Below are positions 636 to 24,793 of a stretch of 32,000 nucleotides of DNA, piece after piece. Source of the stretch: Halalkalibacterium halodurans (GTDB lineage Bacteria; Bacillota; Bacilli; Bacillales; Bacillaceae_D); assembly GCF_004376175.1 (NCBI RefSeq), contig NZ_SNUY01000006.1:1-32000 (forward strand), written 5' to 3'. Position 1 is the first letter of the stretch. Each line of letters starts with the position of its first letter. The notes under the pieces were generated by a model. It was given only the letters and a program-made list of their open reading frames with translations. It was not told where the DNA came from and made no database searches. The translations under genes and the position numbers were made by a program.

Positions 636-672
636 ATAAAAATAAAGTGGTGCTAGCACCACTTTATTTTGC
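636..672 (-). terminator. Intrinsic terminator of rny
   Basis: Palindrome AAAGTGGTGCTAGCACCACTTT (644-665) overlaps the rny stop codon. On the minus strand it is followed by ATTTTTATAT. Confidence 0.75.
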
Positions 673-2229
673 ATACTCGACCGCTCGGGTTTCGCGAATG
701 ACAGTGACGCGAATATGTCCCGGATAGTCAAGCTCCTCTTCAATTTTCTTCGTAATGTCGCGGGCGAGCTTATGGGCAAGGACATCGTCGACGATATCCG
801 GCTTAACCATAATTCGCACCTCGCGCCCCGCTTGAATGGCGTACGTTTTTTCAACACCATCGAAGGACTCTGAAATCTCTTCAAGTTTTTCTAGGCGTCG
901 GATGTAAGTTTCAAGCGTTTCCCGTCTCGCTCCAGGTCGTGCGGCCGATAATGCATCAGCTGCAGCAACCAATGAAGAGATAATTGATGTGGCTTCTGTA
1001 TCACCGTGGTGTGAGGCAATCGCATTAATGACCACCGGATGTTCCTTGTACTTTGTCGCTAACTCAACACCGATTTCCACATGGCTTCCTTCCACTTCAT
1101 GGTCAATTGCTTTTCCTATATCATGAAGCAGGCCGGCCCGGCGGGCAAGTTTTACATCTTCCCCCAACTCCGCTGCCATTAGTCCTGCTAAATATGCCAC
1201 TTCCATCGAATGCTTTAACACATTTTGGCCGTAGCTCGTCCGGAACTTCAGTCGACCTAAGATTTTGATTAAATCTGGATGGAGCCCGTGGATGCCCATT
1301 TCAAACGTCGTTTGTTCGCCGTATTCTCGAATGGCCTCGTCCACTTCACGGCGAGCTTTATCAACCATTTCCTCAATTCGAGCTGGATGAATCCGTCCAT
1401 CTTGAACGAGCTTCTCTAAAGCGGTTCGAGCAATTTCTCGTCTGATCGGATCAAACCCAGATAAAATAACAGCTTCCGGGGTATCATCAATGATGAGATC
1501 AATCCCTGTTAGCGTCTCTAAGGCTCGAATGTTGCGTCCTTCCCGTCCGATGATACGTCCTTTCATCTCATCGTTCGGTAAATTCACAACAGAGACAGTG
1601 GTTTCCGCTACATGATCCGCAGAGCAACGCTGAATCGCGAGCGACAGAATTTCACGGGCTTTTTTATCCGCCTCTTCTTTCGCTTTTGCTACGCGCTCTT
1701 TGATCAGCAAGGCCGTTTCATGAGCCATCTCCTGCTCGACTTCAGCGCGGATGACTTCACGTGCCTCTTCGCGAGAAAATCCCGAAATTCGCTCAAGCTC
1801 TACTTGCTGCTTGTTCAAGATTTCCTCCACTTTGCTATCCATCTCTTCAATTTGTCGTTGTTTTTTGGTGAGAGATTCCTCCCTTTTATCCAATGATTCC
1901 TCTTTTTTGTCCAAGGTTTCACTTTTCCGGTCTAGAATCTCTTCTTTCTGAACCAAACGATTCTCTTGTTTTTGAATCTCGTTTCTTCTTTCACGAATTT
2001 CGCGCTCCGCTTCTGTTCGAAGCTTATGAACCTCATCCTTCACTTCAAGGATGGCTTCCTTTTTCCCCGCTTCGGCTTCGCGCTTCGCATCTTCAACGAT
2101 TTGTTTCGCAGCATGTTCGGCGCTGGAAATTTTCGCTTCGGCAATCGATTTTCGAACAAGATATCCAACAACTGCACTGACTGCAGAGACAACAAGCAAA
2201 ATGGAGATGAACAAGACGTTAAATTCCAT
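664..2229 (-). CDS. rny: Ribonuclease Y (N-terminal TM helix, coiled coil, KH and HD domains)
   Basis: 521-aa ORF. It has an N-terminal hydrophobic helix ([19 protein letters not shown]), a long E/K-rich coiled coil, a KH-like [19 protein letters not shown] and an HD motif [20 protein letters not shown] lies upstream of the ATG. Position next to recA matches B. subtilis. Confidence 0.95.
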
Positions 2230-2351: not shown

Positions 2352-2380
2352 ATTCTATCGGTGATACAGGAGATTGTCAA
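2352..2380 (-). promoter_or_regulatory. Sigma-A type promoter for rny
   Basis: The minus strand reads TTGACA (2380-2375), a 17-nt spacer, then TAGAAT (2357-2352). The -35 hexamer contains the TGA stop codon of the upstream 221-aa gene. No terminator lies between that gene and rny. Confidence 0.6.
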
Positions 2381-3042
2381 GTGTTGTCAATTTTAACAAC
2401 TTCGCTGACGCCATCGCGAATGTCAACATGATAGGCTGTGTCCCCTGACTCCGCCAAGTGATGATTATGGGTAATCATTAAGATTTGGCGCCCAAACATC
2501 GTAGCTAATGACCTCAAAAACTCATAAAGAGGCTGGACATATTCCTCGGAGACGTGCTTGCCTGGCTCGTCAAGCAAAATCGGGCCTGGCATGGACGGTT
2601 GTATCGTTTCAAGCAATGCAACCCTAAGGGCGAGAGTGACGATGTCGACTACCCCGCCTCCTCTCGATTCCTGTGGCTTCGTTTTGACTTTTACTCCCTC
2701 GTATTCTGTTAACACGTAAAATTCAGCGACCGCTTTGCTTCCATGCTCTTCAAGTTCAATGTGAAAGGAAAACAATGGTCCAAACACATATTGCAGAGCA
2801 TTCGTTACGAGCGATTCTATTTGTTGCTTCGCTTGCTCCCGTGCATATTCTGCAGACTGTTGCAAGAGAATTCGCGCCTTTTCATAAACATCCCTTGTCT
2901 CACGAAAAGATTCTAGCTGTTTTAGCTTTTCATCCAATTGCTTTAGCAGTAGCTGTCTTGTCGCATCAAGCCGTTGCCACTCTTCATTCGCTTTCTTCAA
3001 TCGTTGCTGGACGCTCGCAAAATGGACAACATACTCACTCAT
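2377..3042 (-). CDS. Rad50/SbcC-like ATPase, C-terminal head piece (short coiled coil plus signature, Walker B and H-loop)
   Basis: 221 aa. The N-terminal ~80 aa are heptad-like (LKKANEEWQRLDATRQLLLKQLDEKLKQLESF). They are followed by SRGGGVVDIVTLALRVALLE (ABC signature-like), GPILLDEPGKHV (Walker B) and LMITHNHHL (H-loop). The ATG overlaps the upstream stop as ATGAGTGA. Confidence 0.8.
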   Translation of the reverse strand: MSEYVVHFASVQQRLKKANEEWQRLDATRQLLLKQLDEKLKQLESFRETRDVYEKARILLQQSAEYAREQAKQQIESLVTNALQYVFGPLFSFHIELEEHGSKAVAEFYVLTEYEGVKVKTKPQESRGGGVVDIVTLALRVALLETIQPSMPGPILLDEPGKHVSEEYVQPLYEFLRSLATMFGRQILMITHNHHLAESGDTAYHVDIRDGVSEVVKIDNT

Positions 3043-3286
3043 CCCGCAACAGTTCCTTTGGAATTAAATCCATCGTTTCCTGGAGGCCTTTTTCGATTTC
3101 CCGCTCCAAGCGTGCAATTTCTCCTTCTAAATCCTCAGGTTTTACGCCAAGCTCCTCCAAATCTTCCAATAGGCGTTTTCGCTGGTTTTCAAGCTCCTCT
3201 AGTTTCGCTTCAGCTCGGTAGCGCATATCCTTTCCTTTTTCAATCGCTTCCTTCATTTTTGCTAGCTGTTGTTCTACTTGTTTCAT
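3035..3286 (-). CDS. 83-aa charged coiled-coil protein (middle piece of the split Rad50/SbcC-like ATPase)
   Basis: The ORF-track frame 3035-3391 is trimmed to the internal ATG at 3286, which is preceded by GGAGGATGG plus 4 nt. Product: MKQVEQQLAKMKEAIEKGKDMRYRAEAKLEELENQRKRLLEDLEELGVKPEDLEGEIARLEREIEKGLQETMDLIPKELLRDE. The discarded 35 N-terminal codons overlap the preceding gene and look non-coding. Confidence 0.6.
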   Translation of the reverse strand: MKQVEQQLAKMKEAIEKGKDMRYRAEAKLEELENQRKRLLEDLEELGVKPEDLEGEIARLEREIEKGLQETMDLIPKELLRDE

Positions 3287-3317
3287 GGTTCCATCCTCCA
3301 AATCTTTACTCAACCGA

Positions 3318-4730
3318 TCAGTGGCGAATCGCCTGACCACAGGTCGGGCACGTACCTTCCTGTAAAAGAAGCTGATGATGGTCATGCTCAAGCTTGATCA
3401 GTTCTTGTTTTGTTTTATGTAAGAAGGCTTGTCCATCGTCCATTCGTTTTCTCACGTGTTCAACTTGTTGCTGTAACTCTTTTAGTTTCCCCAGCTTTTC
3501 GAGCTGGGCGTTTAACTGTCCAATCTGCTCGTTCGCTATGACGGCCCCATTCGATTGATCTTTTTTTTCTTGCCATTGAATCCGCTCTTGTTCATAGTTC
3601 CGCCATCTACGATAGATAGTGTCAAGGTGTTGCTTCCGTTCGTAATAAGCTTGCAGCTTATGAAAGTTGACGATCCGATCTGTTGTGACAAAGGACGTTT
3701 TTTCAAACGCCGCAAAGGCATGATGCTTAACCCTTTCCTGTTCGTCCCAATACCGCTTATGTTTAGATAGGACTTCAAGCCTTCCTTTTAGTTCACTCAT
3801 TCTGTTCAACTGCTCATTCGCTAATGCCATTTGATTTGTTTTCTGAATCCATAAGTGGCACTTTGTCACCTGTGTCTTTAACTCACCTAGTTGGCGATGA
3901 AACTGACGATAAACCGTTAGGCGTGAGAGAGCCGCTTGAATCCGTTCATACCCATGGATCCACTCCTCAAGGTGTTGTACCCGCGTCAGCTGCCTCCGAA
4001 CGTGGGCTTGTTGTTCCCTTTGTTGTTCCAGCGCGCGCTCGAATTCCATAAGCTTTTTCTTTTTTTCCTCAAGCTGGTGAAGCTCGTTCATTTTCTGTTC
4101 CGCTTGTTCAAGCTTCCGCTTATGTAAATCGAGCGATTGAAAAGGAAGCAATTCCCCCTCGATTCGTTGTGCCTCTTCTTCATCATACTTCATTTTTTGA
4201 TTCAATCTCGAGAGGTCTTTCGTCGTATCGCGTATCGCCATGTCCAAAAAGTGTGCACCACTAATTCGACCGATTGCTTTTGCTCGGATCGCTCCTGTCT
4301 GATCAAGGAGAAATGGTCCGTCAAGCTGTTGAGCAACGTGAAGCTGGATTTCATGATCACGGTCAATTCGAAGTGGCTTCATTCCGTGGGCGTCCAGCAC
4401 CTCTTGTGGAACATGAATACCAAATCCCTCTAGGATAAGGTCTTCCTCCTCTGGCCGCTTTATGACATAACGATTCTTCGAAGGAGTACGTTCACGAACA
4501 ATGGTTGTTCCATCAGTAAACGTCACACGAACACGGACAAAATCAGCACCTGCCCTCATGAAGTCCGTCCCTCTTGGCAAATTAAACAAGGCCCAGCGAA
4601 TGGCCCGTAAGATTGAGGTCTTTCCACTGTCAGATTCCCCGACAATGACATTCATCCCTTCGCCAAATTCAATAACCGTATCAAGGTGTGATTGAAAATT
4701 TTCAAGCCTGACCTGATTAATCGTACTCAT
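3318..4730 (-). CDS. Rad50/SbcC-like ATPase, N-terminal head piece plus long coiled coil ending in a CxxC zinc hook
   Basis: Start is set at ATG 4730, with AAAGGTGGGG 4 nt upstream. The track start 4757 lies inside the upstream gene. Features are VRLENFQSH, Walker A GESDSGKTS, then roughly 270-290 aa of E/K/Q/L heptad sequence. The C-terminus is EGTCPTCGQAIRH-stop. Confidence 0.8.
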   Translation of the reverse strand: MSTINQVRLENFQSHLDTVIEFGEGMNVIVGESDSGKTSILRAIRWALFNLPRGTDFMRAGADFVRVRVTFTDGTTIVRERTPSKNRYVIKRPEEEDLILEGFGIHVPQEVLDAHGMKPLRIDRDHEIQLHVAQQLDGPFLLDQTGAIRAKAIGRISGAHFLDMAIRDTTKDLSRLNQKMKYDEEEAQRIEGELLPFQSLDLHKRKLEQAEQKMNELHQLEEKKKKLMEFERALEQQREQQAHVRRQLTRVQHLEEWIHGYERIQAALSRLTVYRQFHRQLGELKTQVTKCHLWIQKTNQMALANEQLNRMSELKGRLEVLSKHKRYWDEQERVKHHAFAAFEKTSFVTTDRIVNFHKLQAYYERKQHLDTIYRRWRNYEQERIQWQEKKDQSNGAVIANEQIGQLNAQLEKLGKLKELQQQVEHVRKRMDDGQAFLHKTKQELIKLEHDHHQLLLQEGTCPTCGQAIRH

Positions 4731-5715
4731 GTTCCCCACCTTTCCAAGCTTCCTCAATGACGGTAATTCTCCTTAATGCCTCTTGTTTCACCGGTTCTTC
4801 CACATTGGACATCGCCGCAATTTCATTGATCACATCATTCATATTTAACGACTGGAATTCGGCATGCTCTTTCACTTGCTGAATAAAGGCATGAAGTTTT
4901 TCTTCTTGATTTACAGACTTTTCTAAAAAGCTCCGATCAAGAACCTCTTCGCCATTTTTCGCTGATTGTAGCGGACGCTCCTTTAAATCAATACCATCTT
5001 TTGTAATCGTCCCTAAAATGACCGTAGGAGTGCGGACAAGCTCTGTCCAGTGGTTGTTAATCCGAGCAATGGCCCCTGGGTTGCATATGTAACGTCCGTC
5101 CTTTTGTTTAATGCCAAAGCCACCGTGAAAATGGCCTGTTAACAACACGTCCGCACTTGTTCCCCATATATGATCGATCAATGTATGTGGAATTCCTTCC
5201 GGCAAGGCTTTCTCAACGAGCATACTATGAACGAGATGGACCATCACATCCGCTTCATGGACATTCACCGGATAATAGTCAAGCTTCGGATCTCGCTGAT
5301 CAATATCGTAATGGTACGGCTGGCCAGAAATTTGGACTTTCACTCCATCTTTTTCAACTAACACGGGCGTTTGTGGATCGATAATGTGAATGATTCCAAA
5401 TGAATGAAGCAATCCAAGCATCGTGCGTGAAATCGTCTCAGGATTATGCCCAAATGTGTCATGATTTCCAGCAATCGCGTAGATCGGCCGTGAGGTTTTA
5501 CGGAAAATTTGCGCAAACTGACCGACAACATTTGGTGAAAGGTCAGGCCGATCAAACACATCCCCCCCATGGAGCAGCATATCCACTTTTTCCGTCTCTG
5601 CGATCTCCATTACTTCATGGAGCTTGTGTTTTAACGTTTCCACGAACGGATCTAACCGATTTTTCGGTGCTGTTCCGCGAATATGTGTATCTGTAAAATA
5701 TAAAAATTTGATCAT
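4717..5715 (-). CDS. Mre11/SbcD-like calcineurin-fold metallophosphoesterase (putative nuclease subunit)
   Basis: 332 aa. Motifs occur in canonical order: FTDTHIRG (DxH), HGGDVFDRPD (GDxxD), IAGNHDTF (GNHD), LTGHFHGG (GHxH). An in-frame TAA five codons upstream fixes the ATG. The SD is weak (GACGAG). The 3' end overlaps the next gene by 14 nt. Confidence 0.8.
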   Translation of the reverse strand: MIKFLYFTDTHIRGTAPKNRLDPFVETLKHKLHEVMEIAETEKVDMLLHGGDVFDRPDLSPNVVGQFAQIFRKTSRPIYAIAGNHDTFGHNPETISRTMLGLLHSFGIIHIIDPQTPVLVEKDGVKVQISGQPYHYDIDQRDPKLDYYPVNVHEADVMVHLVHSMLVEKALPEGIPHTLIDHIWGTSADVLLTGHFHGGFGIKQKDGRYICNPGAIARINNHWTELVRTPTVILGTITKDGIDLKERPLQSAKNGEEVLDRSFLEKSVNQEEKLHAFIQQVKEHAEFQSLNMNDVINEIAAMSNVEEPVKQEALRRITVIEEAWKGGEHEYD

Positions 5716-5782: not shown

Positions 5783-5821
5783 ACGAAAATCCCCCTATGT
5801 CTATTGTAACGTTAGGGGGGA
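5783..5821 (-). terminator. Intrinsic terminator of recA
   Basis: The minus strand reads CCCCCTA, a 15-nt loop, TAGGGGG, then ATTTTCGTT. It begins 15 nt after the recA stop. Confidence 0.7.
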
Positions 5822-5836
5822 CGTACAGCACGTATA

Positions 5837-6886
5837 TTATTTCAAATCGAGTGGGAGATCTTCAAACTCCTCTTCCGATGGAGCCTCCACCTCAATCTCT
5901 CCGTTCAAACCGTAATGCTCGCGAATTCGGCTTTCAATTTCCTCCGCAGCTTCAGGGTTTTCCTTTAAAAATTGTTTCGCATTCTCGCGCCCTTGACCGA
6001 GACGCTCGTCATTGAAGGAATACCAAGCTCCGCTTTTTTGCACAATATCAAGCTCAGAAGCAATATCTAAAATCGAGCCTTCACGGGAAATCCCTTCACC
6101 GTACATAATATCCACTTCCGCTTGTTTAAACGGAGGAGCCACTTTGTTTTTCACGACTTTAATTTTCGTCTTGTTACCGACCATATCGTTTCCTTGCTTT
6201 AACGTCTCTGCACGGCGCACTTCGAGACGAACAGAGGAATAGAACTTAAGCGCTCTTCCCCCCGGTGTCGTTTCCGGGTTTCCGAACATAACACCAACTT
6301 TTTCACGAATTTGGTTAATGAAAATCGCAATTGTTTTTGACTTATTGATCGCACCTGAAAGCTTCCGAAGCGCTTGAGACATTAGGCGTGCTTGCAAGCC
6401 AACATGGCTGTCACCCATCTCCCCTTCTATTTCCGCTTTCGGTACAAGAGCTGCCACACTGTCGATGACAATGACGTCAATGGCCCCGCTGCGAACTAAC
6501 GCTTCAGCGATTTCCAACGCTTGTTCTCCGGTATCAGGCTGTGACAATAAGAGCTCATCAATGTTTACACCTAGCTTTTTCGCATAAACCGGATCAAGGG
6601 CATGTTCCGCATCAATAAACGCAGCTTGACCACCATTTCTTTGCACCTCTGCAATCGCATGGAGGGCAACGGTCGTTTTACCAGATGATTCTGGACCATA
6701 CACTTCAATAACTCTTCCACGAGGGTATCCACCAACACCCAGGGCGATGTCAAGGGCAAGAGCACCGCTGGAAATGGTAGATACACGTTGTTCTGCTTGT
6801 TCTCCCAGCTTCATGATCGAGCCTTTTCCGAATTGCTTTTCAATTTGTCGTAACGCCATGTCCAACGCTGCTTTACGATCACTCAT
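5837..6886 (-). CDS. recA: Recombinase RecA
   Basis: 349 aa. It has Walker [10 protein letters not shown] plus [19 protein letters not shown] and [15 protein letters not shown]. There is no interruption (no intron or intein). Confidence 0.98.
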
Positions 6887-6992: not shown

Positions 6993-7006
6993 CGAACATT
7001 TATTCG
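6993..7006 (-). promoter_or_regulatory. LexA (Cheo/SOS) box upstream of the recA promoter
   Basis: The minus strand reads CGAATAAATGTTCG. This fits the Bacillus consensus CGAAC-N4-GTTCG with one mismatch. It has the same GAAT...GTTC form I recall for B. subtilis recA. It lies 9 nt upstream of the -35. Confidence 0.65.
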
Positions 7007-7077: not shown

Positions 7078-8697
7078 CTATTTTTGAAATGTTCTTCGCT
7101 GTGATTCCCGCTTTGGACGAGGTTTTGCTGGCTCAAGGTTCACACGAGCACCGTTGATCCTTGAGTAACGAAGCGCTTCATAAACAAACGGAGCCACTTC
7201 TTCAGGCACTTCAACAAACGTGAATTTTTCAAAGATGTCGATTCGGCCGATCGCCTTACCAGGAATGTCAACAAGCTCTGCAATCTCCTCGACAAGAATC
7301 TTTGGACTCATATTCACATTTCTACCAACATTGATAAAGAAACGGACCATGCCTTTGGCACCACCGGTTTCCCCAAAGCTATATCCCGCATCCTCAGGAG
7401 TTGTGTCCATCGCGTAGTTTAATTGAAGGAGAGCAGAGATCACCTCTTTTGAATCGTACTCTGCCATCAACTCTTCAGTCATTTGCTCGAAGAGGTGCTT
7501 TTGGTTAGAGCCTTTCTCAATTCGATGGGCGATTTGTTTCTTCCATGATTCTTTTTGTTTTTCCACCACATCTTCAATCGTTGGCACTTCTTGAGACGGG
7601 ATTGACATTTTAATTTCTTGTTCGATCGAACGGAGATGTTTCATTTCCCTTGGCGTGACAAGCGTAAGTGCAAGCCCTTTACGTCCTGCACGGCCTGTAC
7701 GACCGATCCGGTGAACATAGCTTTCTGGATCTTGGGGAATATCATAATTGATCACGTGAGAGACGTTCCCCACGTCAATCCCTCTCGCCGCCACATCGGT
7801 GGCAATCAAGAATTCAATCGATGAGTCACGGAATTTCCGCATAACTGCATCACGCTGAGATTGTGTTAAATCACCGTGTAATCCATCGGCAATGTAACCG
7901 CGAGCTTGCAATGCTTCCGTTAGCTCTGCCACCCCTTTTTTCGTCCGGCAAAACAAAATTCCAAGATCAATCTGCTCGCTGTCAATAATCCGGCAAAGAG
8001 AATCTAATTTATTCCGCTCTAACACTTTATAATAAAATTGATCGATAGAAGGTGCTGTCACTTCACGTCGATTGATGGATACGGTTTGTGGATCGTTCAT
8101 ATATTTGCGAGATAGCTTTTTAATCGCTGGCGGCATCGTCGCAGAGAAAAGCAAGGTTTGGCGCTCATTTTTCACCTGGCGCAGAATGGACTCGATATCA
8201 TCGATAAAGCCCATATCAAGCATTTCATCAGCTTCGTCTAAAATCACTGTATTAACGTGGTCTAAAATTAACGTTTTCCGACGCAGATGATCGATAATAC
8301 GACCCGGTGTCCCAATGACGACTTGAACTCCTTGTTTTAAAGCTTTGATTTGATGAACAATCGATTGTCCCCCATAAATCGGAAGGGTACGAATTTTTTT
8401 GTGCTTGGAAAGCTTTTGAATTTCTCCTGACACTTGGATTGCTAGCTCTCGTGTAGGTGTTAAGATAAGAGCCTGTACATGGCGGCCCGTCGTCACTTTT
8501 TCCACTACTGGTATGCCAAACGCAGCTGTTTTTCCTGTTCCTGTTTGGGCTTGGCCAATGACATCACCACCTGCAAGGATTGCAGGAATCGCCTTTGCTT
8601 GGATAGGAGATGGCTCTTCAAATCCCATCTCAATAATCGCCTTTTTAATTTCTTCTCCAATTTGTAACTCATTAAACTTTATCATTGCTTCGTTCAT
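7078..8697 (-). CDS. DEAD-box ATP-dependent RNA helicase with DbpA/DeaD-type C-terminal RNA-binding domain
   Basis: 539 aa. Motifs: Q motif FEEPSPIQ, motif I AQTGTGKT, Ia PTRELA, II DEAD, III SAT, VI HRIGRTGRAG. The C-terminal RBD-like block is VRFFINVGRNVNMSPKILVEEIAELVDIPGKAIGRIDIFEKFTFVEVP, followed by a basic tail. An alternative start is ATG 8685. Either start overlaps the cinA 3' end. Confidence 0.9.
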   Translation of the reverse strand: MNEAMIKFNELQIGEEIKKAIIEMGFEEPSPIQAKAIPAILAGGDVIGQAQTGTGKTAAFGIPVVEKVTTGRHVQALILTPTRELAIQVSGEIQKLSKHKKIRTLPIYGGQSIVHQIKALKQGVQVVIGTPGRIIDHLRRKTLILDHVNTVILDEADEMLDMGFIDDIESILRQVKNERQTLLFSATMPPAIKKLSRKYMNDPQTVSINRREVTAPSIDQFYYKVLERNKLDSLCRIIDSEQIDLGILFCRTKKGVAELTEALQARGYIADGLHGDLTQSQRDAVMRKFRDSSIEFLIATDVAARGIDVGNVSHVINYDIPQDPESYVHRIGRTGRAGRKGLALTLVTPREMKHLRSIEQEIKMSIPSQEVPTIEDVVEKQKESWKKQIAHRIEKGSNQKHLFEQMTEELMAEYDSKEVISALLQLNYAMDTTPEDAGYSFGETGGAKGMVRFFINVGRNVNMSPKILVEEIAELVDIPGKAIGRIDIFEKFTFVEVPEEVAPFVYEALRYSRINGARVNLEPAKPRPKRESQRRTFQK

Positions 8698-20216: not shown

Positions 20217-20438
20217 TTAAAGTTGCGGTTTCGCGTAAATCACCGTTCCGGGTGCGAACCTTGACTCTAAATAGTGACGAGGGTTGCTGCTTATTAAACG
20301 GACTACTCTGTATTCAGATGAGGACATCTCTTCTACGATCACCATCGCTCCGTCTACGTCAATGGTCCGCACATTTCCCGATGGCTGCGTGTCTTCATAG
20401 AAGATCGATTCATATGGAACCATCGTATACAATATCAT
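20217..20438 (-). CDS. ylzJ: YlzJ-like small protein
   Basis: 73 aa starting [13 protein letters not shown]. It has a 4-nt overlap with the tepA stop. Position between tepA and spoIIIE matches B. subtilis. Confidence 0.7.
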
Positions 20439-21205
20439 TGCATCATTTCCCCTTCAGGATGGGGTAGCTGCTGCTTTTCGATGAGTTCCGTTAATTTCTG
20501 CATCGCTTTTCCGATCCCTCCCACTTCATCAATGAGTCCGTATGTTACGGCGTCAGTTCCAATGACGTTTGTCCCGATGTCCCTCGTTAAATTCCCTTTT
20601 GAAAACATGAGCTCCTTAAACTTTTCCTCCGAAATATGAGAATGTTTCGTCACGAAGCTAACGACCCGTTCCTGCATTTTATCTAAATATTCAAATGTTT
20701 GCGGTACACCGATGACAAGTCCTGTTAGCCGGACCGGGTGAATCGTCATCGTCGCAGTCTCAGCAATAAATGAATAATTAGCGGCGACCGCAATCGGAAC
20801 GCCGATCGAATGACCCCCTCCTAATACGAGGGTGACGGTAGGCTTTGACATGGTCGCAACCATTTCGGCGATGGCAAGTCCTGCTTCAACATCTCCGCCC
20901 ACCGTATTTAAAATGATCAGTAATCCTTCAATTTTTTTATTTTGTTCCGCGGCTACAAGCTGTGGAATAATGTGCTCATATTTGGTCGTTTTGTTTTGCG
21001 GAGGTAGCTGCATATGCCCTTCAATCTGACCGACAACCGTTATGCAATGGATATTGGACTGTTCCATTTCTGGAACGTTCGTTTGACCCAATTGCTGAAT
21101 TTTTTCAATAATGCCTGAAGGCTTCCCTTCTTGATTAGGCTCTTGTTGCGGTTGCTCTGGCTGCTGAGGTTGCTCTGGCTGTTCATCTTGTCGTCCGTAA
21201 TCCAT
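20435..21205 (-). CDS. tepA: ClpP-like translocation-enhancing protein TepA
   Basis: The track ORF is trimmed to ATG 21205, with AAAGGAGGATGATC directly upstream. Length is 256 aa. The ClpP/crotonase-like core reads [19 protein letters not shown]...[13 protein letters not shown]. The N-terminal tail is Q/P/E-rich. Confidence 0.8.
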
Positions 21206-21289
21206 GATCATCCTCCTTTTCATCGTGGTGTTAGTATAAACGGCAAGGGAGCATTTCATGCGACAGCGATATTTCTCAGAAGCAAAAGA

Positions 21290-23118
21290 GGCTGGGACAA
21301 AACTAGCCAAAAATAGTAAGTAAAAAGGTTCCAAGCAAATAATAAGTGCTTGGAACCTTTTTTGTGGAGTTTTTCTTATTTCCTGGCCCTATGTCACCGT
21401 TCGTGGCCGTGTACTTTCTCAAGTTCACGGCCATAAATGCAAACCCCAATTCATTTTTCACTTTATCTTTGCCTCTGACGGACATTCGAGTGAAACCCAA
21501 ATTAGCCTTCAGAAAACCGAACACTGGTTCTACTTCAACTTTTCGTTTCCTGTAAATTTCACCAGTTTTCTCGTCTGAAAGCTTCATACGTATATTTTCT
21601 TTTTGAGATTCCCACTTTTCATTAATGTAGACTTTTCGATTGTTGCCTTCTTTTGCTTTCGTGCACAGTTCGCGGAATGGACAGCCTGAACAATCTTCAC
21701 ATTCGTACACTTTAAATTCCCGTGTGAATCCGTACCTGTCTGTTCGTTTGGACTGATGGCTAAACCATACTTTTTGACCATTTGGACATCGGAAAGCGTC
21801 CTCTTCCTCATTATAATCCCAATTGTCTACATGAAAAGCATTGTCTTTGTGTTTCCTTTTCTTTTCCTTTCGATACTGATTGTATGTAATAAGTGGCGTT
21901 CGATTTCGATTCTCAATGATTTCTTCATAGTTCTGTTCGCTTCCGTATCCTGCATCTGCAACGATATATTCTGGTAATTCGAAGAAATCTTCTATCGTTT
22001 GAAGAAATGGAATCAAGGTGCGTGTATCTGTTGGATTTGGAAAAACATCGTAAGCGAGTGCGTATTGACCTTCTGTCGCAAGTTGTACATTATAACCAGC
22101 TTTCAATTGACCGTTCTTCATGTAATCGTCCTTCATCCGCATAAACGTCGCATCAGGATCAGTTTTTGAATAGCTATTGCGTTCGCCGAAAGTCTCCATA
22201 TCTTTTTGATACTTTTGTTTACGAGCAATGAAATCCATGAACTGCTTACGAGCTTGTTTTGGTGCTTTACGTTCAGCGCGAATGTTCTTCCGTTCACTGC
22301 CGACCTCACAAGCTTCAATTTTTTTATCATATTCGCTGACTGTTTCGTCTAACTTTTTGACCACTTCTTCCATTTCTTTAACGGTTAGTTCTTCTTTACT
22401 TTCTCGTTCTATCGCTGGGATAATTTCCTTTTCCAATAATTCATCATACAGTTGGTTGGACTTTTCTATTAATTTTTCACTATATTGTTCGACGGATTTT
22501 CTCCATACAAAGGTAAATTTGTTTGCGTTCGCTTCAATCTTCGTACCATCAATAAAAATTGCTTCTTCTTCAATCAACTCCTTTTCCACGAGTTGATTAC
22601 GGAATTGGACAAAACATTCGCGCAGTAATTTTTCAATAAGTGGATTGGAACGGAAACGATTAATCGTCCGATAGCTCGGCTCATTTCCTTGGGCTAACCA
22701 CATCATCCGAATACTGTCTTGGAGCAACGCTTCTATCTTACGACCAGAAAACACAGATTGTGTATACCCACACAAAATAACTTTTAACATCATACGAGGA
22801 TGATAGGCAGGACGTCCAGTTTGGCGTAAGAAATCTTTGAATGCTTCCTCTGGTATGCTCTCTACAAGGTCATTAATCGCAAAAGCAATATCATTTTCTT
22901 GTAATTTTATTTCTAAATCTAGCGGCAAAACAATTTGATTCATGGTATACTGTTTAAACATAAGGACACCTCCAAAAATTATTGTTTAGTCACTTTAATT
23001 TTATCAAAAGGTGTCCTTTTGGTTTACACAAAATACGAATAAAAAGGCGTGAAGCCTACACTTTTTAGTGTAAGCTCCTACGCCTTATTTTTTTATTTCC
23101 TGGGGTTTTGTCCCAGCC
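21290..23118 (-). mobile_element. IS1182-family insertion sequence, apparently complete (~1.83 kb)
   Basis: The 14-bp terminal inverted repeats are GGCTGGGACAAAAC (21290-21303) and GTTTTGTCCCAGCC (23105-23118). They extend to 16 bp with one mismatch. They flank a single 552-aa transposase ORF. No clear target-site duplication is visible. Confidence 0.8.
21303..22961 (-). CDS. IS1182-family (DDE) transposase
   Basis: 552 aa. The N-terminus [41 protein letters not shown] is typical of IS1182-family transposases in Bacillaceae. SD GGAGGTG lies 6 nt upstream. The stop codon lies inside the terminal repeat. Confidence 0.88.
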
Positions 23119-23125
23119 CCCATTT

Positions 23126-24793
23126 TTATACTTCCATAATAATTGGTAAAATCATTGGCCGACGCTTTGTTTTTTCAAACAAAAACCGACTGAGGACTTC
23201 ACGAACATTGCTTTTCAATGAAGACCATTCGTTCACATTTTCGGTGACACATTTTTTTAACGTCTCGGTCACTAATTCATTCGCTTCTTCAATTAATTTT
23301 TCCGACTCTCGTACGTAAACAAATCCGCGCGAGATAATATTTGGTCCAGAAAGAATCGTTCCTGATTGTTTGTTTAACGTCACAACAACAACAAGGATGC
23401 CATCTTTTGAAAGGAGGCGACGGTCACGAAGAACAATATTTCCCACATCTCCGACACCTAGTCCATCAATAAGGACGTTACCAGATGGGACTTTGCCTGC
23501 CTTTCTTCCTTGACCATTTCGAAATTCAACGACTTCTCCTTTATCGACAAGAAAAATGGCCTCTTCTCTGATCCCTACACTTTTCGCTAACTCTTTATGA
23601 GCATGTTGCATGCGAAATTCACCGTGAATGGGGACGAAAAATTTTGGACGCATGAGGTTCAACATCAGCTTCAATTCCTCGGCGCTTCCATGCCCTGACG
23701 CATGAACCTTTCCATGACCGAAAATGACATCTGCACCAATACGGTGAAGTAAATCAACGATAGTGGATACACTTCTCTCATTTCCTGGAATTGGGGTTGC
23801 GGCGATAATCACCGTATCGTTTTCCGTAATTGTGATTTGACGATGCGCCCCTTTTGCCATCCGCGATAAAGCAGACATTGGCTCCCCTTGGCTACCGGTC
23901 GTAATAATCGCGACCCGTTCATCATCATATTTTGATACTTCCTCAATATCGATAAATAGATCATCCGGAGCCTCTAAGTAACCTAATCGTTCTGCGATCG
24001 AAACGACTTTGACCATGCTTCGCCCTGCTACAGCTAATTTCCGATTCGTTGCAATCGCTGCATGAATCACTTGCTGTACTCGATGGACATTTGACGCAAA
24101 TGTTGTGACGATGATTCGGCCTTTTGTTTGCTCAAAAGCCTCTGCAATCCCCCGACCGACCTCCGTCTCTGACTTCGTCATCCCTGGGCGCTCTGCGTTC
24201 GTACTATCGGAAAGGAGACATAGCACCCCTTTGTGACCAATCGCCGCCATCTTTCCAATCTCAGCTTGCTTTCCATCTACAGGCGTTTGATCGAATTTGA
24301 AATCACCTGTATGAACAATAAAACCTTGTGACGTTTGAATGCAGATTCCTACCGAATCTGGAATGCTGTGATTTGTTCGAAAAAAGGAAACGGGGGTAGA
24401 GCCTAATTTTAAGCGAGAGTTACTATCAATAAGCTTTAACTTTGCTGAACGGATCAAGCCTGCTTCTTTTAGTTTTTCTTCAACTAAACCAAGGGTAAGC
24501 TTTGTTCCATAGACAGGGACATTTAACTTTTGCAATACATATGGCAAGCCGCCAATGTGATCTTCGTGACCGTGAGTGAGCAGGATGGCCCTTACTCGCT
24601 CTTCATTTTCCACTAAGTATGAAATATCCGGGATGACCACGTCAACCCCGAGCATTTCATCATCGGGAAACATTAAGCCTGCATCGATGACGAAAAGGTC
24701 ATCGTCTACTTCTACGACGTACATGTTTTTGCCAATTTCACCTACGCCACCTAAGGCAAAAACACGAATGGATTCTGTTGTTTGCTTTGACAA
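23126..24793 (-). CDS. rnjB: Ribonuclease J (metallo-beta-lactamase / beta-CASP family)
   Basis: 555 aa. It has LTHGHEDHIGG (HxHxDH). The start is TTG, with AGGAGGAACAGAA upstream. The rnjB symbol is assigned only from position between dapA and tepA. The sequence alone does not separate J1 from J2. Confidence 0.85.
   Translation of the reverse strand: MSKQTTESIRVFALGGVGEIGKNMYVVEVDDDLFVIDAGLMFPDDEMLGVDVVIPDISYLVENEERVRAILLTHGHEDHIGGLPYVLQKLNVPVYGTKLTLGLVEEKLKEAGLIRSAKLKLIDSNSRLKLGSTPVSFFRTNHSIPDSVGICIQTSQGFIVHTGDFKFDQTPVDGKQAEIGKMAAIGHKGVLCLLSDSTNAERPGMTKSETEVGRGIAEAFEQTKGRIIVTTFASNVHRVQQVIHAAIATNRKLAVAGRSMVKVVSIAERLGYLEAPDDLFIDIEEVSKYDDERVAIITTGSQGEPMSALSRMAKGAHRQITITENDTVIIAATPIPGNERSVSTIVDLLHRIGADVIFGHGKVHASGHGSAEELKLMLNLMRPKFFVPIHGEFRMQHAHKELAKSVGIREEAIFLVDKGEVVEFRNGQGRKAGKVPSGNVLIDGLGVGDVGNIVLRDRRLLSKDGILVVVVTLNKQSGTILSGPNIISRGFVYVRESEKLIEEANELVTETLKKCVTENVNEWSSLKSNVREVLSRFLFEKTKRRPMILPIIMEV

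Follow-up and report, generated by a model that had tools for sequence, protein, structure and literature searches.

Is a Rad50-like reading frame that stops at its own zinc hook the remnant of a broken gene, or one part of an enzyme that is encoded in several pieces? The question is raised by a locus of Halalkalibacterium halodurans lying in the first 32,000 nucleotides (nt) of contig NZ_SNUY01000006.1, the stretch of DNA that we analysed and call the window. There, a gene for the N-terminal part of a Rad50/SbcC-like ATPase (gene B) ends shortly after a CxxC motif and is followed by two smaller genes, C and D, and preceded by A, which encodes an Mre11/SbcD-like protein (Table 1). The Rad50/SbcC and SMC proteins are defined by a single chain that follows a coiled coil outward, reverses at a hook or hinge, and comes back to finish its own ATPase head. 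We show below that the boundary between B and C is a conserved, translationally coupled gene junction and not a break in a gene. It is likely that this genuine coupled junction belongs to a four-gene module of Bacillota, A-B-C-D, in which A would be a nuclease and B, C, and D the three polypeptides of a Rad50/SbcC-type ATPase, the whole being devoted to DNA-end processing.

The four genes, as well as the flanking recA and rny, are all read from the minus strand of the window. We placed the start of B at the ATG at 4730, which gives 470 amino acids (aa); the longest possible frame, from a TTG at 4757, has 479. A database protein annotated with the same 470 aa (P0001) is 100% identical to B. The C-terminus of the protein reads LLLQEGTCPTCGQAIRH, in which CPTC is followed by GQAIRH and then by the TGA. 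The initial annotation, made from the DNA letters, had placed the end of the 470-aa ATPase piece just past the CxxC, as we find, and had put the stop five codons after the motif, where we count six. What it described next is all read in the sequence: a 31-nt gap, a strong Shine-Dalgarno element, and an ATG that opens a new coiled-coil frame. The Shine-Dalgarno stretch is GGAGGATGG at 3299-3291, the start codon of C is the ATG at 3286-3284, and the frame of C, which has 83 aa, is offset by 1 relative to that of B. The following junction is tighter still, since the ATG of D (3042-3040) overlaps the stop of C via ATGAGTGA. In a DNA alignment of the close clade, the stop of B, the Shine-Dalgarno element, and the first codons of C (ATGAAACAAGTAGAACA) are all retained. 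Scans of the window for Rfam families and for tRNAs gave no matches.

The split is found far beyond this clade. Nine loci of distant Bacillota share the order A-B-C(-D), with junctions that are overlapping or tight. They come from H. ligniniphilum, Shouchella, Kroppenstedtia, Peptoniphilus, Natroniella, Desulfovirgula, Tumebacillus, and Acetivibrio, and span Bacillaceae, Thermoactinomycetaceae, and the lineages of the last five genera. The stop, the Shine-Dalgarno element, and the restart ATG recur across these loci. At the B/C junction the two genes overlap by up to 50 nt or are separated by up to 22 nt, GGAGG stands ahead of C in most loci, and the frame offset from B to C is 1 or 2, never 0. 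Among the 120 best homologues of B (28-48% identity), 117 have a CPxC motif at 4-57 residues (median 15) from the C-terminus, and the three that do not end in this way are truncated entries of 327-410 aa. All 234 homologues of C are stand-alone proteins of 79-97 aa, none of them joined to B or D. The homologues of D that were listed measure 205-240 aa, the exceptions being truncated entries, a small number of somewhat longer proteins, and the arm-less fusions described below; their family counts 888 members in a word-indexed search and 1411 cluster representatives (at 50% identity) with E <= 1e-10 in an exhaustive search. No fusion of B with C, of C with D, or of all three was present among the matches listed for the three proteins. 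A search of contigs with B as single protein returned only a RecN locus (L001) and was uninformative.

These observations bear directly on the possibility that a full-length SbcC/Rad50 gene was broken here by frameshifts, through random decay or through an error of sequencing or assembly. Three successive open reading frames in differing frames, which together look like one Rad50, are indeed the pattern expected of a frameshifted pseudogene. We nevertheless regard this explanation as scarcely credible: every homologue examined, down to 28% identity, is laid out in three pieces, its catalytic motifs intact and its junctions coupled, and no full-length relative is found among the matches listed for B, C, and D. 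Furthermore, identical proteins occur on several independent contigs, which speaks against an error specific to this genome and excludes a sequencing error. Read-through of the junction in relatives, which had been set beforehand as the test of a functional split, was seen in none: B ends past the hook in the 117 homologues mentioned above, and C and D stand alone. The proposal of a functional split gene rather than decay is thus well supported by a layout, motifs, and coupled junctions that recur across the Bacillota homologues. We also rejected programmed frameshifting or readthrough from B to C. Both the spacing (from a 50-nt overlap to the 31-nt spacer of the window) and the frame offset (1 or 2) vary, and there is therefore no conserved recoding site.

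The motif at which B ends is, by its sequence, a Rad50-type hook. Residues C461, P462, and C464 are invariant in an alignment of 24 sequences (28-47% identity), more than chance would give, so that the conservation of CxxC among B homologues, the other point on which the functional split had been made to depend, takes the form of an invariant C-P-x-C. We took the C-terminal 70-110 residues of 18 homologues of B, built a hook profile from them, and searched it against solved structures. The best match was the zinc hook of Pyrococcus furiosus Rad50 (1L8D, E = 1.6e-7), and 6ZFF matched at 5.5e-7. The alignment covers the last ~65 residues of B and spans the ascending helix, G-x-C-P-x-C, and about 16 turn-back residues (LkelGrCPtCgseieedtverilkel in the profile). 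Most B homologues have a tail of about 15 residues after the hook that resembles the start of the descending helix of the P. furiosus protein; in H. halodurans and its clade this tail is trimmed to 6-15 residues.

Gene A encodes a calcineurin-type phosphoesterase, a predicted nuclease of the Mre11/SbcD type. It matches Pfam Metallophos (2e-11), while its matches to the SbcD/Mre11 models of NCBIfam are below threshold, and the motifs DTH, GDVFD, and GNHD are seen in the translation. Its best relative among solved structures is P. furiosus Mre11 (2e-7), with Escherichia coli SbcD trailing at 2e-3. A gene A of the Mre11/SbcD type adjoins B in all nine loci.

The motifs of the ATPase head are distributed between B and D. 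The former has the Walker A motif and an invariant Q-loop glutamine (Q135, in the 24-sequence alignment); the latter has the signature-like motif, the Walker B, and the H-loop, all highly conserved, and the last two align with those of LolD and of P. furiosus Rad50. The signature position of D reads S-R-G-G-G, versus S-G-G-E/Q in Rad50. B matches Pfam AAA_23 (2.5e-17) and the NCBIfam model of archaeal Rad50, PRK03918 (5e-20). A profile of its homologues searched against the PDB retrieves the N-lobes of Rad50 at 1.7e-12, and Foldseek searches with its AlphaFold2 (AF2) model give the Rad50 heads of Methanocaldococcus jannaschii and P. furiosus as top matches. D matches the NCBIfam model Rad50_Sulf (NF041034, 8e-8), with residues 20-218 covering model positions 674-869 of 872, and aligns to the C-lobe chain of P. 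furiosus Rad50 (3qkr_B). To judge from these motifs and alignments, B and D jointly hold every motif of one ABC-type Rad50 head. Nature provides the corresponding fusion: four arm-less single-chain relatives of 300-403 aa (P0298, P0367, P0380, and P0382) join a B head lobe straight to D, with N-terminal parts 33-44% identical to the head of B and C-terminal parts 34-39% identical to D. This branch of the family lacks the long arm, the CPxC, and any segment resembling C. The natural fusions of the B head with D establish that B and D are halves of one ATPase.

We propose the following assembly. B has head lobe I, with the Walker A and the Q-loop, the whole outgoing arm, and the CPxC at its C-terminus. 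D has a short coil and head lobe II, with the signature-like GGG, the Walker B, and the H-loop. The two would assemble a single ABC ATPase head in trans, by analogy with the Rad50 heads that have been split in the laboratory. Two B chains would share one zinc ion via their terminal CPxC motifs, as the chains of canonical Rad50 do. C and the coil of D would give only part of the return strand, and about half of the B arm would therefore have to pair with a second B chain or fold on itself.

This last point departs from the initial annotation, which saw two arms made as separate polypeptides by a cut exactly at the turning point. That geometry is not supported as it stands, for there are three pieces and the return path is about half as long as the arm of B. 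In the AF2 model of the single chain, this arm has about 290 residues, in helices at 169-197, 200-251, 254-343, and 352-458. D has only residues 1-50, up to 70, outside its conserved head. C is modelled with high confidence (predicted local distance difference test of 90.8) as a helix at 2-46, a loop at the invariant GVxPE, and helices at 50-74 and 77-82, i.e. about 76 helical residues; A25, L32, P50, I57, L60, and P76 are invariant. A simple cut at the apex also sits poorly with the variation in length. B falls into classes of ~440, 475, and 530 aa that differ by blocks of ~47 aa mapping to B 309-373, and in which the CPxC stands at ~410, 460, and 505, respectively, while C (79-92 aa) and D (219-225 aa) are constant across the classes. 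These uncompensated blocks imply that this stretch of B is out of register with C or D. Finally, C is far more conserved than the arm of B (0.5-0.8 per 10-residue block, the level of a globular domain, versus 0.23-0.39), and it has no detectable similarity to the descending helix of a Rad50 hook.

The arm itself has traces of repetition. A profile of B ~197-460 (4142-3351 of the window, minus strand) aligned with itself has a period of ~47 residues, with offsets of ~47, 93, and 130, although coiled-coil composition inflates self-similarity signals in this region. The length classes of B are one such module apart. A motif resembling 'L..T.....A' recurs near residues 199, 252, 299, 344, and 399, and weak conservation peaks lie at 251-260, 291-300, and 341-350. 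As for C, some of its homologues match the recent Pfam family PF27863, which C of the window does not match in our local copy of Pfam, and others are mislabelled in databases as 'viral A-type inclusion protein', 'Serine--tRNA ligase', or 'chromosome segregation ATPase'.

Three topologies could accommodate these lengths. In the first, which is the earlier view of the locus, C lies right under the hook, leaving a variable stretch in the middle of B without a partner; both the site of the indels and the moderate conservation of the hook-proximal segment of B agree with this topology. In the second, C is next to D: the partner of B 175-251 (77 residues) would be the coil of D, that of B 254-343 (90 residues) would be C (83 aa), and that of the distal 107 residues of B a second B chain. 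We regard these two as similarly likely. The third, in which B folds back at 344-351, is less likely than either and is ranked lower because of the hook homology. It amounts to saying that the gene boundary is not at the apex, and that the CPxC stands somewhere along the arm, short of its tip, or close to C and D, where it would be a zinc clasp or a docking knuckle and not an apical hook. The AF2 model does break at 344-351, between helices of 90 and 107 residues, the ~47-aa indels map around this break with no compensation in C or D, and C and D cover only about half of the arm. Yet the last ~65 residues of B align with the P. furiosus hook all along its ascending helix, across the CPVC, and into the start of the turn-back, as expected of canonical hook geometry, and a monomer model with a predicted TM score of 0.34 cannot reveal the tertiary packing of the arm. 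On balance, a fold-back of this sort seems unlikely. Returning to an arm that runs straight out to a terminal hook, we tentatively suggest, as a possibility with somewhat better prospects that still falls well short of an even chance, that D, and C as a conserved adaptor, pair with the B arm only in its half near the head, and that the distal 100-150 residues, as a single helix, form a parallel B-B' coiled coil closed by a shared Zn(Cys)4 clasp at the free C-termini. Such distal pairing would allow modules of ~47 aa to be gained or lost with no change in C or D.

The genomic setting gives some indications on function. The module lies between recA (sometimes recA-recX) and rny-ymdB-spoVS in five loci from four lineages. 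In Desulfovirgula thermocuniculi, nurA-herA is directly upstream of A-B-C-D (L006:1105-3956), and in Tumebacillus sp. BK434 it is also upstream (L009:1-2505), with two unrelated genes between. The H. halodurans window has neither herA nor nurA, the neighbours of the module being recA and rny. In archaea, HerA and NurA are partners of Mre11-Rad50, and the genes form a mre11-rad50-herA-nurA cluster. The gene context and the archaeal-type affinity point to housekeeping DNA-end processing over defence. The module probably acts with RecA, and in some lineages with HerA-NurA, in the processing of double-strand breaks or hairpins.

An anti-phage defence system, with a Lamassu-like SMC/Rad50 ATPase and a nuclease, would also associate proteins of this kind, and operons containing HerA do include defence systems. 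PADLOC matches B to LmuB models at 8e-20, and D to LmuB at 1.5e-6 and also to mad3. These matches are, however, limited to generic head and coil regions. LmuA and LmuC have no PADLOC match, A matching only PDC-S10 and C no Lmu model, and the partner nuclease is of the Mre11 type. In addition, the module occupies one fixed place, between recA(/recX) and rny, in the five loci, unlike mobile defence islands. We consider a role in defence, rather than in housekeeping repair, improbable.

Several observations weigh against the assembly that we propose, or against parts of it. The association of B, C, and D is itself deduced from sequence and from single-chain models, and zinc binding by the CPxC of B from homology. 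The curated families score B poorly: its best score is 71 bits for PRK03918, whose cut-off is 700, and sbcc_Staph gives 24.7 against 920. Scores so far under the cut-offs indicate a distant branch. C has no detectable counterpart in Rad50; Foldseek with its model gave no meaningful match, and its profile searched against PDB sequences gave generic coiled-coil matches only, none of them to the descending helix of a Rad50 hook. The return strand made of C and the D coil would have ~125-150 residues, for a B arm of ~290. No SOS (Cheo) box was found upstream of A. In Acetivibrio clariflavus, where A-B-C is present (L002:5015-7700), tblastn found no D gene up to 6 kb away; that genome may have it at another place or do without it. 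The genes that come after A-B-C in this locus are a MiaB-like radical-SAM gene and then pgsA. A 214-aa open reading frame downstream was considered as a displaced D and rejected on comparison.

The closest known system is the archaeal Mre11-Rad50 of P. furiosus and M. jannaschii (1F2U, 3QKT, and 3AV0; hooks 1L8D and 6ZFF). It has in common with the module the head lobes with their Walker A, Q-loop, Walker B, and H-loop, an N-terminal half of equal length (CxxC at about residue 445-460), a GxCPxC hook followed by similar sequence, an adjacent nuclease gene, and, in some relatives, adjacent nurA-herA. The module differs from it by having three polypeptides instead of one, a hook at a free C-terminus, a return strand about half as long, the extra helix-loop-helix subunit C, a signature GGG in place of SGGE/Q, and scores far below the family cut-offs. 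SbcCD (E. coli SbcC, 6S6V, and the staphylococcal SbcC) comes second. It is alike in its ABC ATPase, long coiled coil, CxxC hook, and calcineurin-like nuclease, but it is a weaker match than archaeal Rad50 (sbcc_Staph 5e-6, 6S6V 2e-3) and SbcC is a single chain of ~1000 aa. The two chains of the engineered split Rad50 heads (1F2T/1F2U A and B, 3QKR A and B), to which B and D align, assemble in trans; those are laboratory constructs with neither arm nor hook, whereas the split described here is natural and conserved, with arm and hook on one piece. Lamassu LmuB and the SMC/Rad50-like defence ATPases have hidden Markov model similarity to our proteins in the head and coiled-coil regions. These, however, are single chains with other partner genes and no Mre11-like nuclease, while the module occupies a conserved housekeeping locus. 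Lastly, the arm-less relatives are one polypeptide with no hook, and B-C-D is split, with arm and hook. Overall, the module has both head lobes, the hook, and the nuclease partner of Rad50/SbcC; it has neither the single chain with matched arms nor scores above the curated cut-offs. From its sequences, it is a natural three-piece Rad50, a variant rather than a plain member of the family.

Table 1. Positions, in the window, of the genes and sequence elements discussed in the text (L numbers designate loci in other genomes).
Feature	Position	Strand	Description
recA	5837..6886	-	Directly upstream of A; from translation; same neighbour in L004, L007, L008, L011
Gene A	4717..5715	-	Mre11/SbcD-like metallophosphoesterase, 332 aa; stop overlaps start of B by 14 nt
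Gene B	3318..4730	-	470 aa; Rad50-like N-terminal head lobe, ~290-residue helical arm, CPTC hook
Walker A / P-loop GESDSGKT (B 31-38)	4617..4640	-	From translation; G31, S33, D34, G36, and K37 invariant
CPTC zinc-hook motif (B 461-464)	3339..3350	-	Aligned to CPVC of the P. furiosus Rad50 hook (1L8D)
Stop of B (TGA)	3318..3320	-	Read from sequence
B/C spacer, 31 nt	3287..3317	-	Holds Shine-Dalgarno GGAGG at 3299-3295, 8 nt ahead of the ATG
Gene C	3035..3286	-	83-aa helix-loop-helix protein; stop at 3037-3035
Gene D	2377..3042	-	221 aa; short N-terminal coil and Rad50-like C-terminal head lobe
Signature-like SRGGG (D 126-130)	2653..2667	-	From translation; block conservation 0.91-0.92
Walker B ILLDEP (D 155-160)	2563..2580	-	From translation; followed by H-loop THN at D 191-193
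rny (RNase Y)	664..2229	-	Directly downstream of D; from translation; likewise in L004, L007, L008, L010, L011

Some other features of the window were noted in passing. Upstream of recA, at 6993-7006, there is a Cheo-box-like operator, CGAACATTTATTCG, with one mismatch and beside a promoter-like site; it was the only good match. The gap between recA and A (~5806-5845) contains a possible leaky terminator of recA, a hairpin formed by CCCCCTA...TAGGGGG around a loop of 15 nt, with ATTTT after it. Between cinA and recA lies a gene (7078-8697, minus strand) for a DEAD-box helicase with a C-terminal DbpA RNA-binding domain; in Kroppenstedtia (L004) and Shouchella (L011) this gene also precedes the module, at a distance of a few genes. 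Further away, a 552-aa open reading frame for an IS-type DDE transposase (21303-22961, minus strand; DDE_Tnp_1_6, DDE_Tnp_1, DUF772) stands between the gene of RNase J (23126-24793) and a ClpP-like gene (20435-21334), overlapping the mechanically called TTG start of the latter by ~32 nt.

Databases label B as 'AAA family ATPase' or 'Nuclease SbcCD subunit C', C as 'hypothetical protein', and D as 'ATP-binding protein' or 'chromosome segregation ATPase'. Our results argue that the three should be annotated as subunits of one enzyme and not as fragments. A free C-terminal hook had been thought undescribed, in keeping with a literature search of incomplete coverage that found no split Rad50/SbcC and no mention of this operon, so that an earlier description is possible. 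In this large family (at least 1411 clusters of D), the chain is cut past the hook, the return strand is halved, and a small subunit is added, and still every catalytic motif and the place next to recA have been kept. Specialists would be surprised by a widespread natural Rad50 whose hook has a free end, whose arm is asymmetric, and to which a further conserved subunit has been added; its assembly and role would be those proposed above. How signals travel along the arm, and whether the chain needs to be continuous through the hook, are matters of debate for Rad50/SbcC and SMC proteins, and the family offers a natural system for probing hook function, arm asymmetry, and the assembly of heads in trans. 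If the distal arms of B do pair with each other, it would be a natural test of whether chain continuity, antiparallel pairing, and matched arm length are dispensable. For the biology of Bacillota, these results indicate an uncharacterised end-processing complex linked to recA and sometimes to herA-nurA.

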